From the NCBI RefSeq assembly GCF_055900595.2, contig NZ_CM148325.1: DNA of 64,000 nucleotides. One strand, written 5' to 3'. How positions within the stretch are numbered: the first letter of the stretch is position 1; the number at the start of each line of letters is the position of its first letter. The notes below the pieces were generated by a model. It made no database searches. It saw only the letters and a list, made by a program, of their open reading frames with translations, and had not been told where the DNA came from. Positions 15,301 to 26,117 of the stretch are shown here, one piece after another. The position numbers and the translations under genes are program-made.

Positions 15301-15600
15301 ATGGCGCTTACAAAAGCTGAAATGTCAGAATATCTGTTTGATAAGCTTGGGCTTAGCAAGCGGGATGCCAAAGAACTGGTTGAACTGTTTTTCGAAGAGA
15401 TCCGTCGAGCTCTGGAAAACGGCGAACAGGTGAAACTCTCTGGTTTTGGTAACTTCGATCTGCGTGATAAGAATCAACGCCCGGGACGTAACCCGAAAAC
15501 GGGCGAGGATATTCCCATTACAGCACGGCGCGTGGTGACCTTCAGACCCGGGCAGAAGTTAAAAAGCCGGGTCGAAAACGCTTCGCCCAAAGACGAGTAA
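15301..15600 (+). CDS. ihfA: Integration host factor alpha subunit
   Basis: 99 aa [55 protein letters not shown]. Confidence 0.96.
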
Positions 15601-15613
15601 TCTGATCTAACTA

Positions 15614-15638
15614 AAAAGGCCGCTCTGCGGCCTTTTTT
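15614..15638 (+). terminator. Rho-independent terminator after ihfA
   Basis: AAAAGGCCGC-TCT-GCGGCCTTTTTT. Confidence 0.8.
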
Positions 15639-15700
15639 CTTTTCACTGTCGAAGAGTCACCGTAAAATCAACGCTATGACACTTCAGCAGAACGGATACC

Positions 15701-16681
15701 ATGCTGACACTTGCCCGCCAACAACAGCGACAAAATATTCGCTGGTTATTATGCCTGTCAGTTTTGATGCTGCTGGCGCTTCTCTTAAGCCTTTGCGCCG
15801 GTGAACAATGGATTTCGCCAGGTGACTGGTTTACTCCTCGTGGCGAACTGTTCGTCTGGCAAATTCGCCTGCCACGTACGCTGGCTGTATTGCTGGTTGG
15901 TGCGGCGCTGGCTATATCCGGCGCTGTAATGCAGGCATTGTTTGAAAATCCTCTGGCAGAACCTGGACTACTTGGCGTCTCTAACGGCGCAGGCGTAGGG
16001 CTTATCGCCGCGGTATTGCTTGGGCAAGGGCAACTCCCAAACTGGGCACTAGGGCTGTGTGCGATTGCTGGCGCGCTTATCATCACTTTAATACTCTTAC
16101 GTTTTGCCCGTCGTCATCTTTCGACCAGTCGGTTATTGCTGGCTGGTGTTGCATTAGGGATTATCTGTAGCGCACTAATGACGTGGGCTATCTATTTTTC
16201 CACCTCTGTTGATTTACGTCAGCTGATGTACTGGATGATGGGCGGTTTTGGCGGCGTAGACTGGCGGCAAAGTTGGCTGATGCTGGCATTGATCCCCGTG
16301 TTGTTGTGGATCTGTTGTCAGTCCAGACCGATGAATATGTTAGCACTTGGCGAGATCTCGGCGCGGCAACTGGGTTTACCCCTGTGGTTCTGGCGCAATG
16401 TGCTGGTGGCAGCGACCGGCTGGATGGTTGGCGTCAGTGTGGCGTTGGCGGGTGCTATCGGCTTTATTGGTCTGGTGATCCCACATATTCTCCGGTTATG
16501 TGGTTTGACCGATCATCGCGTATTACTTCCCGGCTGCGCGCTGGCAGGGGCGAGCGCATTGCTGCTGGCCGATGTTGTAGCGCGCCTGGCATTAGCTGCC
16601 GCAGAGCTGCCTATTGGCGTGGTCACCGCAACGTTGGGTGCGCCGGTGTTTATCTGGTTATTGTTAAAAGCAGGACGTTAG
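15701..16681 (+). CDS. btuC: Vitamin B12 ABC transporter permease
   Basis: 326 aa polytopic membrane ORF, recognised BtuC sequence. Confidence 0.95.
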
Positions 16682-16741
16682 CCGCAAAAAGACGGTCTAT
16701 GATTAAAAGCTAAGATTTTTACTGACCACCCAGGAGAAACG

Positions 16742-17293
16742 ATGCAAGATTCCATTCTGACGACCGTAGTGAAAGATATCGACGGTGAAGTGACCACGCT
16801 GGAGAAGTACGCCGGTAATGTGCTGTTGATTGTCAATGTCGCCTCAAAGTGTGGCTTAACGCCGCAATATGAGCAGTTGGAGAATATTCAGAAAGCCTGG
16901 GCCGATCGTGGTTTTGTGGTGTTGGGATTCCCGTGCAACCAGTTTCTGGAGCAAGAACCGGGCAGCGATGAAGAGATTAAAACTTACTGCACCACTACCT
17001 GGGGGGTGACGTTCCCGATGTTCAGTAAGATTGAGGTTAATGGCGAAGGACGCCATCCGCTGTATCAAAAATTGATTGCCGCAGCGCCGACGGCAGTCGC
17101 GCCGGAAGAGAGCGGATTCTATGCCCGTATGGTCAGCAAAGGTCGTGCACCGCTGTACCCTGATGATATTTTATGGAATTTTGAGAAATTTTTAGTTGGC
17201 AGGGACGGATTGGTCATCCAGCGTTTTTCCCCGGATATGACGCCGGAAGATCCCATTGTGATGGAAAGCATTAAACTGGCGTTGGCGAAATAA
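16742..17293 (+). CDS. btuE: Glutathione peroxidase-family thioredoxin/glutathione peroxidase
   Basis: 183 aa ORF with CGLTPQY motif typical of GPx family. Confidence 0.93.
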
Positions 17294-18042
17294 TGTCTAT
17301 TGTGATGCAGCTACAGGATGTTGCGGAATCAACCCGCCTTGGGCCGCTTTCTGGCGAGGTTCGGGCTGGGGAGATCCTACATCTGGTGGGGCCGAATGGC
17401 GCGGGTAAGAGTACCTTACTGGCGCGAATGGCCGGAATGACCAGCGGTAAGGGAAGCATTCAGTTCGCGGGGCAACCACTGGAAGCATGGTCCGCAACAA
17501 AACTCGCGCTGCATCGCGCCTATCTTTCACAACAACAGACGCCACCGTTTGCAATGCCGGTCTGGCACTACCTGACACTGCATCAGCACGATAAAACGCG
17601 TACCGAACTACTGAATGATGTCGCAGGGGCGCTGGCTCTTGATGACAAACTCGGACGTAGCACCAATCAACTTTCCGGCGGCGAATGGCAACGCGTACGT
17701 CTTGCTGCGGTGGTGCTGCAAATCACACCACAAGCCAATCCCGCAGGCCAATTACTACTTCTTGATGAGCCTATGAACAGTCTTGATGTTGCGCAACAAA
17801 GTGCGTTAGACAAAATTCTGAGCGCGCTGTGTCAGCAAGGACTGGCGATTGTGATGAGCAGTCACGATCTCAACCACACCTTGCGTCATGCGCATCGGGC
17901 GTGGTTGCTAAAAGGTGGAAAAATGCTGGCCAGTGGACGCAGAGAAGAGGTGCTCACGCCGCCAAATCTGGCGCAGGCCTATGGGATGAATTTTCGCCGT
18001 CTGGATATCGAAGGTCACAGAATGCTGATTTCGACCATCTGA
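17293..18042 (+). CDS. btuD: Vitamin B12 ABC transporter ATPase
   Basis: 249 aa ORF with Walker [10 protein letters not shown] and LSGGEWQR signature; overlaps btuE stop by 1 nt. Confidence 0.95.
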
Positions 18043-18119
18043 TTTCATTAGTATCTTGAAAATCGGGTAATTACGACGCTAAATTAATGCAAGAATAAAA
18101 AACAGAGGAACCGTACGGA

Positions 18120-18584
18120 ATGCGTTTCTGCCTTATTTTGATCACAGCACTGTTTCTGGCCGGGTGTAGCCACCATAAAGCACCGCCGCCAAATGCCAGA
18201 CTTTCTGATTCGATTACCGTTATTGCCGGTTTGAACGACCAGCTACAGAGCTGGCATGGTACGCCGTATCGTTATGGTGGCATGACGCGGCGCGGTGTGG
18301 ACTGTTCGGGGTTTGTGGTTGTGACGATGCGCGATCGTTTCGATTTGCAGCTGCCCCGTGAAACCAAACAACAAGCCTCTATCGGCACGCAAATTGATAA
18401 AGACGAGTTGCTGCCTGGTGACCTGGTCTTTTTCAAAACGGGCTCCGGACAAAATGGTTTGCATGTAGGTATTTACGATACCAACAACCAATTTATCCAC
18501 GCCTCTACCAGCAAGGGAGTGATGCGTTCCTCACTCGATAATGTCTATTGGCAGAAAAATTTCTGGCAGGCGAGACGAATCTAG
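18120..18584 (+). CDS. nlpC: NlpC/P60-family lipoprotein
   Basis: 154 aa ORF with lipobox LAGC near N-terminus. Confidence 0.9.
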   Translation: MRFCLILITALFLAGCSHHKAPPPNARLSDSITVIAGLNDQLQSWHGTPYRYGGMTRRGVDCSGFVVVTMRDRFDLQLPRETKQQASIGTQIDKDELLPGDLVFFKTGSGQNGLHVGIYDTNNQFIHASTSKGVMRSSLDNVYWQKNFWQARRI

Positions 18585-18830
18585 TATGTCGAAAAATGGA
18601 CGGCGATGATACATCTCCGTCCATTTACTCCTGAATACAGTAGTATTTTACAGACAAAAATACCGTATATGGATTATTCGTTTATAATCAGGATAATCTA
18701 ATAAAAGGACCCCTGAAAAAGTGGTTAACATGGAACAAATGAAAGTTACTCCTTCTGTAATTGTTATGTCTTATGGCCTCATCCCTTTTAGCCGGATACT
18801 GAAAAACATCCTTCGAGAGGGACGGTTACC

Positions 18831-19544
18831 ATGAAGATTTTTTTGGAGAATCTTTATCATTCTGATTGCTATTTCCTGCCGATAAGAGATAATCAGCAAG
18901 ACCTTGTCGGCGTTGAGTTAATTACCCATTTCTCCAGTGAAGATGGTACGGTTCGTATACCGACGAGTCGGGTTATAGCGCAACTTACCGAGGAGCAACA
19001 TTGGCAATTATTTTCTGAGCAGTTGGAATTGCTAAAATCATGCCAACACTTTTTTATTCAACATAAACTCTTTGCCTGTCTTAATTTAACCCCACAAGTG
19101 GCTACTTTATTATTAGACAGGGATAATTACGCGGGCGAACTATTAAAATATCCGTTTATTGAACTGTTGATTAATGAGAATTACCCGCATCTCGATGAAG
19201 GAAAAGATAATCGCGATCTTTTGTCCTTATCGCAAATGTATCCCCTTGTGTTAGGTAATTTGGGCGCAGGCAATAGCACAATGAAAGCGGTTTTTGATGG
19301 TCTTTTCACCCGCGTCATGCTGGATAAAAGTTTTATTCAGCAACAAATCACGCATCGCTCCTTCGAACCGTTTATTCGTGCGATCCAGGCGCAAATTTCC
19401 CCATGTTGCAATTGCATCATCGCGGGGGGCATTGATACGCCAGAAATAATGGCACAGATTATCCCCTTTGATTTCCATGCTCTCCAGGGATGCCTGTGGC
19501 CTGCCGTTCCTGTAAATCAGATAACGACGTTGGTTCAGCGATAA
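18831..19544 (+). CDS. ydiV: Degenerate EAL-like protein YdiV/RflP (anti-FlhD4C2 factor)
   Basis: 237 aa ORF; ELI in place of EAL motif (VGVELITHF). Confidence 0.9.
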   Translation: MKIFLENLYHSDCYFLPIRDNQQDLVGVELITHFSSEDGTVRIPTSRVIAQLTEEQHWQLFSEQLELLKSCQHFFIQHKLFACLNLTPQVATLLLDRDNYAGELLKYPFIELLINENYPHLDEGKDNRDLLSLSQMYPLVLGNLGAGNSTMKAVFDGLFTRVMLDKSFIQQQITHRSFEPFIRAIQAQISPCCNCIIAGGIDTPEIMAQIIPFDFHALQGCLWPAVPVNQITTLVQR

Positions 19545-19567
19545 CCCTCCTGTTTGCTGGTGTTTAA

Positions 19568-21043
<1,476 letters not shown>

Positions 21044-21046
21044 AGG

Positions 21047-21238
21047 CTACTTGGTCAACAGCAGCTTGCCAGCCTGAGTTTTACGAAGCAGATATTCTTG
21101 CCCGTCATGATCGATAATCAGTTTGCCATCCGGACCTAACAGTGTCTGGCTGGTAATTCGCCGAATGGGCTGCGGGGAGGCGGTCTTGTGATTGGCATCC
21201 GTTTCAGGCGTGAGTTTTCTGCTATCCGTATAACGCAT
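21047..21238 (-). CDS. ydiE: HemP-family small protein YdiE (63 aa)
   Basis: ATG at 21236-21238 (minus) gives [28 protein letters not shown]; Fur-box-like sequence just upstream. Confidence 0.8.
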
Positions 21239-21249
21239 AAAAATTAATA

Positions 21250-21284
21250 ATAATTGATATAACAATGATTCTTATTATCAATAT
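21250..21284 (-). promoter_or_regulatory. Putative Fur box in ydiE promoter
   Basis: Minus-strand read TGATAATAAGAATCATTGTTATATCAATTATTA resembles Fur consensus GATAATGATAATCATTATC. Confidence 0.55.
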
Positions 21285-21369
21285 TCTGGCGGACCAGAGC
21301 AAGCAGTAATTTGTTGAGAAGACAACAAGTTGCGCAGAAATGCCCATTCCGTCAGGAATGGGCACGCAT

Positions 21370-22416
21370 TCAGAAGCGGGTATCAACCGCAGAGGCGAGT
21401 TTTTCGACCAGGCGTTCGGTATCTTCCCAGCCCAGACACGGGTCGGTAATCGATTGACCGTAAGTGAGCGGCTGACCGCCGACGATTTTTTGCGTTCCTT
21501 CGCGCAGGAAACTTTCCGCCATAATTCCAGCAATCGCCGTAGAGCCATTGCGGATTTGCTGACAAATATCCTCACAAACTTCTAACTGGCGACGGTGCTG
21601 CTTCTGGCAGTTACCGTGGCTGAAATCCACCACCAGATGTTCAGGTAAATCAAACTCGTGCAACGTATCGCAGGCAGCGGCGATATCATCCGCATGGTAA
21701 TTCGGCTTTTTGCCGCCACGCATAATAATGTGGCCATACGGATTGCCGCTGGTCTGATAGATGGTCATTTGACCGTTTTTGTCAGGCGAGAGGAACATAT
21801 GGCTGGCGCGGGCAGCGCGGATAGCATCCACGGCAATTCGCGTGTTGCCATCGGTACCATTTTTAAAACCTACCGGACAAGAGAGTGCCGAAGCCATTTC
21901 ACGGTGGATCTGGCTTTCGGTAGTACGTGCGCCAATCGCGCCCCAACTGATTAAATCAGCAATAAACTGACCGGTCACCATATCGAGGAACTCAGTCGCG
22001 GTAGGGACGCCCAGCTCATTGACCTGTAAAAGTAATTTGCGCGCCAGCTCCAGACCGTGATTTACCCGGTAGCTGCCGTTTAAATCCGGATCGGAGATTA
22101 GCCCTTTCCAGCCGACAACAGTTCGTGGTTTTTCAAAATAGGTGCGCATTACGATTTCCAGCCGTGACTGGTACTGGTTGCGCAGCGACTGCAGACGGGT
22201 GGCGTACTCCATTGCAGCGGTGAGATCGTGGATCGAGCAGGGGCCAATAATGACCAACAGTCGCTTATCTTCACCATTCAGTATTTTTTCAATTCTGCGG
22301 CGGGAGTCGGTGACATGGGTGGCGACGCCAGGCGTTACGGGATACCGTAGCGCGAGTTCGGCGGGCGTTACCAGGCTCTCAATACGCGCAGTACGGAGTT
22401 CGTCAGTTCTGTTCAT
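21370..22416 (-). CDS. aroH: DAHP synthase, Trp-sensitive isozyme
   Basis: 348 aa ORF, recognised AroH sequence. Confidence 0.95.
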   Translation of the reverse strand: MNRTDELRTARIESLVTPAELALRYPVTPGVATHVTDSRRRIEKILNGEDKRLLVIIGPCSIHDLTAAMEYATRLQSLRNQYQSRLEIVMRTYFEKPRTVVGWKGLISDPDLNGSYRVNHGLELARKLLLQVNELGVPTATEFLDMVTGQFIADLISWGAIGARTTESQIHREMASALSCPVGFKNGTDGNTRIAVDAIRAARASHMFLSPDKNGQMTIYQTSGNPYGHIIMRGGKKPNYHADDIAAACDTLHEFDLPEHLVVDFSHGNCQKQHRRQLEVCEDICQQIRNGSTAIAGIMAESFLREGTQKIVGGQPLTYGQSITDPCLGWEDTERLVEKLASAVDTRF

Positions 22417-22560
22417 TACAAGTCTCAGAAATTTGTTGCTTCTACGGCAGGACTACCGGGAAGTGATGCGCATCACGATAAACCAATCGCAGCTGATTTC
22501 AAGTGCGAGGTGTGTCACACCTCGCCGGGTGGTTAGCATGATAACAAAAAAACAAGCTAA

Positions 22561-22580
22561 TGCACTAGTTCTCTAGTACA
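22561..22580 (-). promoter_or_regulatory. Putative TrpR operator of aroH
   Basis: Minus-strand read TGTACTAGAGAACTAGTGCA with two CTAG cores; overlaps ppsR stop codon. Confidence 0.6.
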
Positions 22581-23406
22581 TTCGACGACTAAGGCCCATG
22601 ATATCAAGGATCTTGGTGGCAATCTCTTCTACCGAATAATTGGTACTGTTAATCCACGGGATCTGATTTTTACGGTACAACGCTTCCACTTCCGCGACTT
22701 CCATCCTGCACTGACGAAGCGAGGCATAGCGACTGTTCTCCCGACGTTCCTCGCGAATCGCCGCCAGACGTTCCGGGTCGATAGTCAGGCCGAACAATTT
22801 ATGCTGAAGCGGTTTGAGCGACGCGGGTAGCACCAGATTATCCATATCGTCGGCAATAAAGGGGTAGTTTGCCGCGCGGATACCAAACTGCATTGCCAGA
22901 TACAAACTGGTGGGGGTTTTACCACAGCGAGAAACGCCGAGCAGGATCACCTGTGCCTGGTCCAGATTGCGTAATGAAATGCCGTCATCATGGGCGAGGG
23001 TGTAATCAATCGCCGCAATACGTGCATCATATTTATTGAGATTATTAGGGTTAAGGCCGTGGGTACGATGAGCAATCGGCGTTGGGTCCAGTTTCATCTC
23101 TTGTTGTAGCGGGGCAACCAGCGCCTGAACGATATCCTGGCAAAAGCCTTCACTTTGCAAGATGATGGCGCGAATCTCCGGCAACACGATGGAGTAGAAT
23201 ACCAGTGGGCGCACACCTGTCTGGTGATAAATTGCGTCAATCTGATCCTTCACTGCCCGTGCACGGCTCTCATTTTCGACAAACGGCAGCGTAATGCTGC
23301 TGATAGTGACGGGAAATTGTGACATTACTGCGTGTCCTAATACCTCCGCAGTTATTGCCGTACCATCAGAAATATAAAAAACGTGGCGATCAACAGCATT
23401 ATCCAT
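22573..23406 (-). CDS. ppsR: PEP synthetase regulatory protein (bifunctional kinase/pyrophosphorylase)
   Basis: 277 aa ORF with P-loop GVSRCGKT; divergent from ppsA. Confidence 0.94.
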
Positions 23407-23738
23407 TTTGTTCTTCCCGTAATGCAGACATAATTCTATGAAAGCATAAATTAAAAACGCACAGAAGCGTAGAACGTTATGTCTGGTTTATAAAATGAAC
23501 CTTCAATTTTATTTTTTATGAAAACAGCATTTCATTTTTACGGTTTCGTTTATACCGATGGTTTATGTGGAAATTGTCGAAGAGAGCAGATTTGCGCAAC
23601 GCTGGGATCAGTCTTAAAAAGTAAAAAAATATATTTGCTTGAACGATTCACCGTTTTTTTCATCCGGTTAAATATGCAAAGATAAATGCGCAGAAATGTG
23701 TTTCTCAAACCGTTCATTTATCACAAAAGGATTGTTCG

Positions 23739-26117
23739 ATGTCCAACAATGGCTCGTCACCGCTGGTGCTTTGGTATAACCAACTCGGCATGAATGATGT
23801 AGACAGGGTTGGGGGCAAAAATGCCTCCCTGGGTGAAATGATTACTAACCTTTCCGGAATGGGTGTTTCCGTTCCGAATGGTTTCGCCACAACCGCCGAC
23901 GCGTTTAACCAGTTTCTGGACCAAAGCGGCGTAAACCAGCGCATTTATGAACTGCTGGATAAAACGGATATTGACGATGTTACCCAGCTTGCGAAAGCGG
24001 GCGCGCAAATCCGCCAGTGGATTATCGACACTCCCTTCCAGCCTGAGCTGGAAAACGCCATCCGCGAAGCCTATGCGCAGCTTTCCGCCGATGACGAAAA
24101 CGCCTCTTTTGCGGTGCGTTCCTCCGCTACTGCAGAAGATATGCCGGACGCTTCCTTTGCCGGTCAGCAGGAAACTTTCCTCAACGTTCAGGGTTTTGAC
24201 GCCGTTCTCGTGGCAGTGAAACATGTATTTGCTTCTCTGTTTAACGATCGCGCCATCTCTTATCGTGTGCACCAGGGTTACGATCACCGTGGCGTGGCGC
24301 TCTCCGCCGGTGTTCAGCGGATGGTGCGCTCCGACCTCGCATCTTCTGGCGTGATGTTCTCCATTGATACCGAATCCGGCTTTGACCAGGTGGTGTTTAT
24401 CACTTCCGCATGGGGCCTTGGTGAAATGGTCGTGCAGGGTGCGGTTAACCCGGATGAGTTTTACGTGCACAAACCGACACTGGCGGCGAATCGCCCGGCT
24501 ATCGTGCGCCGCACCATGGGGTCAAAAAAAATCCGCATGGTTTACGCGCCGACCCAGGAGCACGGCAAGCAGGTTAAAATCGAAGACGTACCGCAGGAAC
24601 AGCGTGACATCTTCTCGCTGACCAACGAAGAAGTGCAGGAACTGGCAAAACAGGCCGTACAAATTGAGAAACACTACGGTCGCCCGATGGATATTGAGTG
24701 GGCGAAAGATGGCCACACCGGTAAATTGTTTATCGTGCAGGCGCGTCCAGAAACTGTGCGTTCTCGCGGTCAGGTCATGGAGCGTTATACGTTGCATTCA
24801 CAGGGTAAGATTATCGCCGAAGGCCGTGCTATCGGTCATCGCATCGGCGCGGGTCCGGTGAAAGTCATCCATGACATCAGCGAAATGAACCGCATCGAAC
24901 CTGGCGACGTGCTGGTTACTGACATGACCGACCCGGATTGGGAACCGATCATGAAGAAAGCATCGGCTATCGTCACTAACCGTGGCGGACGTACCTGTCA
25001 CGCGGCGATCATCGCTCGTGAACTGGGCATTCCAGCGGTAGTGGGCTGTGGTGATGCAACAGAACGGATGAAAGACGGTGAGAACGTCACTGTTTCTTGT
25101 GCAGAGGGTGATACCGGTTACGTCTATGCTGAGTTGCTGGAATTTAGCGTGAAAAGCTCCAGCGTGGAAACGATGCCGGATCTGCCGTTGAAAGTGATGA
25201 TGAACGTCGGTAACCCGGACCGTGCTTTCGATTTCGCCTGCCTGCCGAACGAAGGCGTGGGCCTTGCGCGTCTGGAATTTATCATCAACCGTATGATTGG
25301 CGTCCACCCACGCGCACTGCTTGAGTTTGACGATCAGGAACCGCAGTTGCAAAACGAAATCCGCGAGATGATGAAAGGTTTTGATTCTCCGCGTGAGTTT
25401 TACGTTGGTCGTCTGACTGAAGGGATCGCGACGTTGGGTGCTGCGTTTTATCCGAAGCGTGTCATTGTCCGTCTCTCTGATTTTAAATCGAACGAATACG
25501 CCAACCTGGTCGGTGGTGAACGTTACGAGCCAGATGAAGAGAACCCAATGCTCGGCTTCCGTGGCGCGGGACGTTATGTTTCCGACAGCTTCCGCGACTG
25601 CTTCGCACTGGAGTGTGAAGCGGTGAAACGTGTGCGCAACGACATGGGACTGACCAACGTTGAGATCATGATCCCGTTCGTGCGTACCGTAGATCAGGCG
25701 AAAGCGGTGGTTGAAGAACTGGCGCGCCAGGGGCTGAAACGTGGTGAAAACGGGCTGAAGATCATCATGATGTGTGAAATTCCGTCCAACGCCTTACTGG
25801 CAGAGCAGTTCCTCGAATATTTCGACGGCTTCTCAATTGGCTCAAACGATATGACGCAGCTTGCGCTTGGTCTGGACCGAGACTCTGGCGTGGTGTCTGA
25901 ACTGTTCGATGAGCGCAACGATGCAGTGAAAGCACTGCTGTCGATGGCGATTCGTGCCGCGAAGAAGCAGGGCAAATATGTCGGGATTTGCGGTCAGGGT
26001 CCGTCCGACCATGAAGACTTTGCCGCCTGGCTGATGGAAGAGGGGATCGATAGCTTGTCCCTGAATCCGGACACTGTGGTACAAACCTGGTTAAGCCTGG
26101 CTGAACTGAAGAAATAA
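23739..26117 (+). CDS. ppsA: Phosphoenolpyruvate synthase
   Basis: 792 aa ORF, recognised PpsA sequence. Confidence 0.97.

Follow-up and report, generated by a model that had tools for sequence, protein, structure and literature searches.

Does the open reading frame at positions 18831..19544 of the stretch of DNA analysed here (64,000 nucleotides in all, called the window in what follows) encode an enzyme that degrades c-di-GMP, or a protein that has kept the fold of such an enzyme and lost its chemistry? The first-pass annotation had named the product YdiV and had pointed to the peptide VGVELITHF at the position expected for the EAL signature. It read this peptide as a degenerate motif (ELI) of an enzymatically inactive protein that acts as a protein-binding regulator against FlhD4C2 instead of as a c-di-GMP phosphodiesterase. 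Our analysis leads, with high confidence, to much the same picture: YdiV/RflP would be a protein of EAL fold, descended from c-di-GMP phosphodiesterases, which has a dead active site and serves as a stoichiometric anti-FlhD4C2 regulator.

For the window itself we determined the identity of the protein, its fold, the placement of the motif, the state of each catalytic position, its conservation and the presence of the FlhD contacts. Functions are taken from the literature on E. coli K-12 and Salmonella, and by analogy the window allele would be expected to act like YdiV of these two organisms.

A stand-alone EAL gene between nlpC and selO

The ydiV (rflP) coding sequence lies on the plus strand, as do all features described below unless otherwise stated. 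It begins with ATG, encodes 237 amino acids followed by a stop codon, and consists of a single stand-alone, degenerate EAL domain. A putative Shine-Dalgarno-like sequence, GAGGGA (18817..18822), is located 8 nt 5′ of the start codon. The translated frame matches the K-12 YdiV entries 4ES4 and 3TLQ of the PDB over all 237 residues (96% identity, E = 1e-154), and it is identical to K-12 YdiV (b1707) at 227 of 237 positions. The Pfam EAL model (PF00563) recognizes it with 35.2 bits at a cut-off of 31.3, residues 13-222 being aligned to profile positions 15-232 of 236. Furthermore, ydiV DNA is found in 5,422 of 5,426 complete E. coli genomes, and the RefSeq label reads 'ydiV: anti-FlhDC factor'. 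Because of the matches to 4ES4/3TLQ, to Pfam and across genomes, the frame is genuine, well past what chance would yield. STM1697 of Salmonella (PDB 5HXG) is also matched, with E = 4e-22. The gene order pheT-ihfA-btuC-btuE-btuD-nlpC-ydiV-selO-hemP-aroH is that of K-12, where the gene goes by the name rflP. Sequence and locus together identify the window ORF as the YdiV/RflP orthologue of E. coli.

Identity with PdeH (YhjH) was considered and rejected. The best NCBIfam model is the PdeH/YhjH equivalog NF008617, which scores 49.5 bits where 190 are required, and the product is therefore an EAL-domain protein, yet not PdeH. Two small reading frames that overlap ydiV, at 19251-19478 on the minus strand and at 19294-19449 on the plus strand, found no support and are taken as chance occurrences.

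An Rfam search of positions 17000-22000 returned no match, and a scan of 18400-19700 for sigma-70 promoters and terminators gave a signal no higher than that of shuffled controls. A sigma-E-type promoter has been mentioned for the nlpC-rflP spacer (PMC5930307). A loose scan for GGAAC-N16-18-TCNNA found four matches in the window, where 4.9 are expected, and none in the nlpC-ydiV spacer.

In the E. coli collection, two of 5,453 matches to the ydiV region fall on plasmid-typed records, and some genomes carry up to three copies of the region. On the other side of ydiV, selO (ydiU) occupies 19607-21043 on the same strand and starts 62 nt past the ydiV stop. SelO/YdiU UMPylates FlhDC according to a Salmonella study (PMC9239255). 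If this holds, ydiV and its neighbour selO would encode two post-translational regulators of FlhDC, the flagellar master regulator.

Fold of the window protein

An AF2 model of the window protein, built on 27 orthologues, reached a pLDDT of 90.6. It agrees with the crystal structure 3TLQ at a TM of 0.91-0.92, and with the active EAL enzymes RocR, BifA, MorA, YahA, PdeA and TBD1265 at a TM of 0.70-0.76, even though sequence identity to these enzymes is only 15-22%; the match probability was 1.00 throughout. The modelled strands end at or beside the former catalytic positions, as they would in the active site of a barrel. By this model, a TIM-barrel-like EAL fold is present.

The EAL signature is in place

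When the PDB was searched with a profile of the YdiV family, RocR alone was reached, and this with the C-terminal half only (YdiV residues 137-223). RocR residues D295, D296, K316, E352, E355 and Q372 map to G142, N143, M163, G199, D202 and Q219 of YdiV, respectively. Since the match to RocR does not extend to the N-terminal motifs, an alignment to reference EAL domains was built. The reference set comprised seven canonical domains, of which PdeL/YahA, PdeH and PdeK were taken from the K-12 genome and PA0575 (5M3C), MucR (5M1T), MorA (4RNI) and BifA (8ARV) from PDB alignments; five of the seven were crystallised with c-di-GMP or GTP or are documented phosphodiesterases. The YdiV family was represented by an alignment of 27 orthologues with 41-98% identity. 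Placement was determined in three ways, namely by hhalign profile-profile alignment, by an HMM of the reference set run against YdiV, and by a joint MAFFT L-INS-i alignment. In hhalign, the 27 orthologues and the seven EAL domains aligned over 210 columns with a probability of 98.8% and E = 8e-17. Around N85, the single-sequence HMM alignment was off-register with a low posterior, and hhalign and MAFFT were preferred there.

The peptide VGVELITHF comprises YdiV residues 26-34 (nt 18906-18932). It falls on TGCEVLVRW of PdeL in hhalign and in the HMM, and MAFFT gives the same placement. The gene coordinates and the peptide given in the first-pass annotation are exact, and its placement of the motif is shared by three alignments. 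The signature itself is E29-L30-I31 (18915..18923), and its metal-binding Glu is kept. The E29 column holds E in all seven reference domains in the MAFFT alignment, and E in 22, D in two, T in two and S in one of the 27 orthologues. Thus, ELI does occupy the place of the EAL signature, but it is not the cause of inactivity, because the Glu is kept. Variant signatures are also carried by active enzymes of the reference set, with EVL in PdeL and PdeK and ELL in PdeH. Given that the Glu is retained here and that EVL and ELL occur in active enzymes, the three letters of the signature say little about activity. As far as the alignments tell, the diagnostic losses sit outside of it, in DDFG, in the Lys and in EGVE.

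The catalytic centre, position by position

At the N-terminal end of the domain, the reference-invariant Gln of the Q-P motif is lost, and L16 is found in its stead. H33 (18927..18929) stands where the substrate-phosphate-binding Arg of EALxR would be. This column is R in six of the seven references (V in PdeH), and among YdiV orthologues it is occupied by H, N, T, Q or S. The metal-binding Asn is kept as N85 (19083..19085), the last residue of strand 81-85; the column is N in all seven references, and among the 27 orthologues it is N in 20, Y in five, I in one and T in one.

The ExxE motif survives as a remnant in E111-L-L113-I-N-E116 (19161..19178), in a register on which hhalign, the HMM and MAFFT agree. 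Its first Glu, which binds metal, corresponds to L113, while the second one, which stabilises loop 6, is kept as E116. However, E111 is invariant among YdiV orthologues and lies just two residues upstream of L113, so that a shift of register is conceivable here.

In loop 6, G142-N143 (19254..19259) replaces both metal-binding Asp residues of DDFG(T/A)GYSS, which are present in all seven references. M163 (19317..19319) replaces the catalytic Lys of K-I-D, in a column that is K in seven of seven references. The (A)EGVE motif is reduced to A198-G199-G-I-D202 (19422..19436), where the general-base Glu has become G199 and the second Glu has undergone a conservative change to D202. The Gln of QG(Y/F) is kept as Q219 (19485..19487), and all but one of the 27 orthologues have Q there. 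For the loop Glu, which we take to be E546 of TBD1265, the assignment is ambiguous, since hhalign places it at E63 and MAFFT at E54.

The signature residues that are kept are hence E29, N85, E116 and Q219, and the positions that are lost despite being invariant in the references (7/7) are L16, L113, G142, N143, M163 and G199. Columns 113, 142, 163 and 199 each contain five to nine different small or hydrophobic residues among the 27 orthologues. By the classical list of ten EAL catalytic residues, six and possibly seven are lost. The EAL mechanism needs the loop-6 Asp pair, the Lys and the general base for its two-metal site. Because both loop-6 Asp residues, the Lys and the general base are absent, no two-metal hydrolytic site would remain in YdiV. 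Li et al. quote a higher figure, with eight of the ten catalytic residues lost in YdiV (PMC3510510); the conclusion of inactivity is independent of the exact count. Moreover, according to a rule used in the field, a phosphodiesterase is predicted to be inactive if the catalytic base of EGVE is not conserved (PMC12900916).

The annotation had proposed an alignment against active EAL domains as the way to examine its reading. In this alignment the motif is placed as it had claimed, and the catalytic set is incomplete. Its view of YdiV as an inactive EAL domain, not a c-di-GMP phosphodiesterase, is therefore upheld, as the replacement of six reference-invariant positions should make the chemistry impossible.

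The FlhD-binding surface

The surface through which YdiV contacts FlhD, as described in the paper on the 4ES4 structure (PMC3510510), is made up of residues 152-192 (19284..19406) in helices alpha6-alpha8. The eight published FlhD contacts, F155, F168, H175, E179, F181, R183, A184 and Q188, are all present in the window protein, whose ten differences from K-12 all lie outside residues 152-192. F155, F168 and F181 are invariant among the orthologues, and A184 and Q188 are found in 26 of 27. In the YdiV-FlhD interface of 4ES4, F155, F168, F181, A184 and Q188 form the hydrophobic core, and the mutations F155A, F168A/Q, F181A/S/Q and A184E weaken or abolish FlhD binding, DNA release and the inhibition of motility (PMC3510510). 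Judging from the alignments, the catalytic centre has been dismantled and the FlhD surface is intact and conserved. The role of an anti-FlhD4C2 regulator that the annotation had assigned to the protein is consistent with the presence of these eight contacts, and the binding itself is documented in the K-12 and Salmonella literature. Outside the FlhD interface, YdiV is evolving unusually fast.

We also compared the region from thrS to ppsA (8283-26117) with K-12. At a similar nucleotide identity (96-98%), YdiV has changed at 10 of 237 and SelO at 18 of 478 residues, and the neighbours btuD, nlpC, btuC, pheS, aroH, ppsA and thrS show zero or one amino-acid change. Beyond E. coli, identity falls to 52% for the YdiV of Salmonella and to 49% for that of E. 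fergusonii. Furthermore, the GC content is 0.39-0.41 in ydiV and the nlpC-ydiV spacer (18400-19400), compared to 0.49-0.57 in the flanking genes. This AT-richness fits a gene that is fast-evolving or was once acquired. There are, in addition, many large clusters of shortened E. coli YdiV proteins (P0010, P0019, P0028, P0044 and P0051) of 130-206 amino acids with hundreds of members. Since complete chromosomes contribute to some of them, truncations or frameshifts of ydiV may be common among natural isolates, though some of the shortened proteins may be contig-end fragments.

How YdiV would act

In the mechanism that we propose, the lost residues would leave neither a two-metal centre nor an activated water in the barrel. 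Helices alpha6-alpha8, centred on F155, F168, F181 and A184, would dock on FlhD within FlhD4C2. At a high ratio of YdiV to FlhD4C2, the ring would be pried open and come off the DNA. The YdiV-FlhD4C2 complex would then be passed on to ClpXP, and the class 2 and 3 flagellar genes would be turned off.

The literature provides a basis for each of the later steps. YdiV is monomeric and was reported neither to bind nor to hydrolyze c-di-GMP, and its action on FlhD has been characterized by the structure of a YdiV2-FlhD2 complex, by mutants of the interface and by assays of motility (PMC3510510). In the same study, a stoichiometry of YdiV3-4:FlhD4C2 was found to open the FlhD4C2 ring, with release of the DNA (PMC3510510). 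YdiV was furthermore found to direct FlhD4C2 to ClpXP (PMC5930307).

Other readings of the locus

The window protein differs from K-12 YdiV by ten substitutions: V24D, W83C, E96D, N122D, G129D, V136M, A204P, L207M, T211I and I228V. Nine of these affect positions that are variable in the family, and W83C is the exception. The codon at 19077..19079 is TGT (C83) in the window and TGG in K-12 and the nearest relatives, and position 83 is W in 26 of 27 orthologues. W83C is confined to eight of 5,426 complete E. coli genomes. An exact match to the 41 nt around the TGT codon was obtained in eight of 5,270 genomes, the remaining ones being one base off. Among the matches listed, seven of the eight C83 genomes match the window over 22 kb at ~100% identity, and the eighth, E400634, is 99.8% identical over the 1,021-nt ydiV region. 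The nearest relatives, at 99.7% identity over the 1,021 nt that comprise ydiV and its flanks, have W83; two of them, 2017-02-2CC and EC42405, keep both W83 and T211. Since the next relatives (99.0-99.3% identical) likewise encode W83 and T211, W83C and T211I (19461..19463) are recent, derived and private to this clade.

This raises the possibility that YdiV of this lineage is weakened or non-functional through W83C, perhaps together with T211I, despite an intact reading frame. In the model, residue 83 belongs to barrel strand 81-85, where it precedes N85 by two residues and shares its face of the strand. A Trp-to-Cys exchange in a strand usually costs stability, and W83C may indeed be destabilising, given that the Trp is shared by 26 other orthologues at 41-98% identity and that the Cys is derived and so rare. 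However, the pLDDT of the AF2 model is ~95 around residue 83, though AF2 is insensitive to point mutations, and the reference EAL domains get by with G, S or A in this place. The frame is also of full length with intact FlhD contacts, and the allele has been maintained in eight isolates, which came from humans and a dog. On balance, we consider a loss or weakening of function unlikely. If W83 fills or stabilises the dead barrel, C83 would be a natural hypomorph that relaxes the post-translational repression of FlhDC, and possibly the control of Fur, in this clade, and here too we would rather bet against it. No description of W83C was found in the YdiV literature surveyed.

A second consideration concerns the groove that once held c-di-GMP. 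It might bind another small molecule that tunes FlhD binding, such that YdiV would be controlled by a ligand and not purely by its concentration, which would add to the main explanation and not replace it. In 3TLQ, this groove holds phosphate and glycerol, which touch T32, H33, F34, T45 and Q64, and Li et al. raised the possibility that nucleotides of the cAMP or cGMP type are YdiV ligands (PMC3510510). In addition, E63, E111, E116, N143, D165, D202 and Q219 show little or no variation in the YdiV family in spite of the lost catalysis. On the other hand, these conserved residues, as far as they are acidic, may be structural, H33 is variable, and N85 is replaced by Y, I or T in seven of 27 orthologues; the YdiV literature surveyed names no such ligand. 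A tuning ligand therefore seems distinctly unlikely to us.

Induction of ydiV by iron starvation, a SlyD-dependent inactivation of Fur and a two-hybrid signal between YdiV and Fur have also been reported (PMC7515728). One could hence argue that the dominant role of YdiV in E. coli is in iron homeostasis, where it would help SlyD to turn Fur into a form that does not bind DNA. However, no stable complex of YdiV with Fur or with SlyD was isolated, and the flagellar and the iron roles were treated as separate and additive (PMC7515728). The strongest conservation in the family, moreover, is that of the FlhD contacts, and we regard a dominant iron role as very unlikely.

It is extremely improbable that the window protein has remained a c-di-GMP phosphodiesterase, even a weak one, or serves as a c-di-GMP receptor like FimX or LapD, because, although the signature Glu, the metal-binding Asn, E116 and Q219 are kept along with the EAL fold and its groove, the Asp-Asp pair, the Lys, the general base, the metal-binding Glu, the Arg and the Gln have given way to G, N, M, G, L, H and L, the lost positions drift freely among orthologues, and YdiV/STM1344 neither hydrolyzed nor bound c-di-GMP in published assays (PMC3510510, PMC5622320).

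Relation to other EAL proteins

Read as an inactive EAL protein directed against FlhD4C2, the window protein has its closest counterpart in YdiV/RflP of E. coli K-12 (b1707; 3TLQ, and 4ES4 with FlhD). The K-12 protein is encoded at the same locus, nlpC-ydiV-selO, and shares the ELI signature, the degenerate positions and the eight contacts; the two proteins differ at the ten residues mentioned above, of which W83C and T211I are private to the small clade. YdiV of Salmonella (STM1344, also called CdgR or RflP) has suffered the same catalytic losses, with the motifs LEIIATF, ANFGAG, VMLDK and IAGID, although it is only 52% identical to the window protein. Its anti-FlhD4C2 function and the targeting to ClpXP were demonstrated in Salmonella (PMC5930307). 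Nutrients regulate Salmonella YdiV in the opposite sense from E. coli YdiV (PMC3510510).

Salmonella STM1697 (5HXG) is likewise EAL-like, inactive and FlhD-binding, and it carries an 'EII' motif in GVEIITHF. However, it is only ~28% identical to the window protein, with a TM of 0.77, and it blocks the recruitment of RNA polymerase, not DNA binding (PMC5622320).

Among active enzymes, PdeH (YhjH) of E. coli is also a single-domain EAL protein of similar length. It keeps ELL, N, ExxE, DDFG, K, EGVE and QG, though not the Arg of EALxR, whereas YdiV has lost its share of these residues, and PdeH promotes motility, whereas YdiV inhibits it. Residues 62-86 of YdiV (19014-19088), EQLELLKSCQHFFIQHKLFACLNL, are strikingly like the corresponding stretch of PdeH, EQIDLLAQKADFFIEHGLLASVNI, and the MAFFT alignment of this segment to PdeH does without the gap that is required for domains of the GGDEF-EAL type. 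This similarity supports a descent of YdiV from a stand-alone, PdeH-like subclass of EAL domains, and PdeH would be its nearest active relative on sequence grounds.

FimX and LapD, too, have inactive EAL domains that are re-used for signalling, and their fold matches that of the window protein with a TM of 0.65-0.70. In contrast to YdiV, which stands alone and is reported not to bind c-di-GMP, they are multidomain proteins that do bind it. YdiV/RflP is a class III ('EAL-like') stand-alone EAL protein.

Significance

The degenerate motif, the missing c-di-GMP activity, the structure of the FlhD complex and the shut-off of flagellar genes were already known (Li et al. 2012 NAR and others). W83C constitutes a minor lead for natural variation in the control of motility. 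YdiV/RflP is a textbook case of an enzyme fold that has been re-used as a protein-binding regulator, and it provides a control for annotation, in that ydiV should not be counted among the c-di-GMP phosphodiesterases of a strain.
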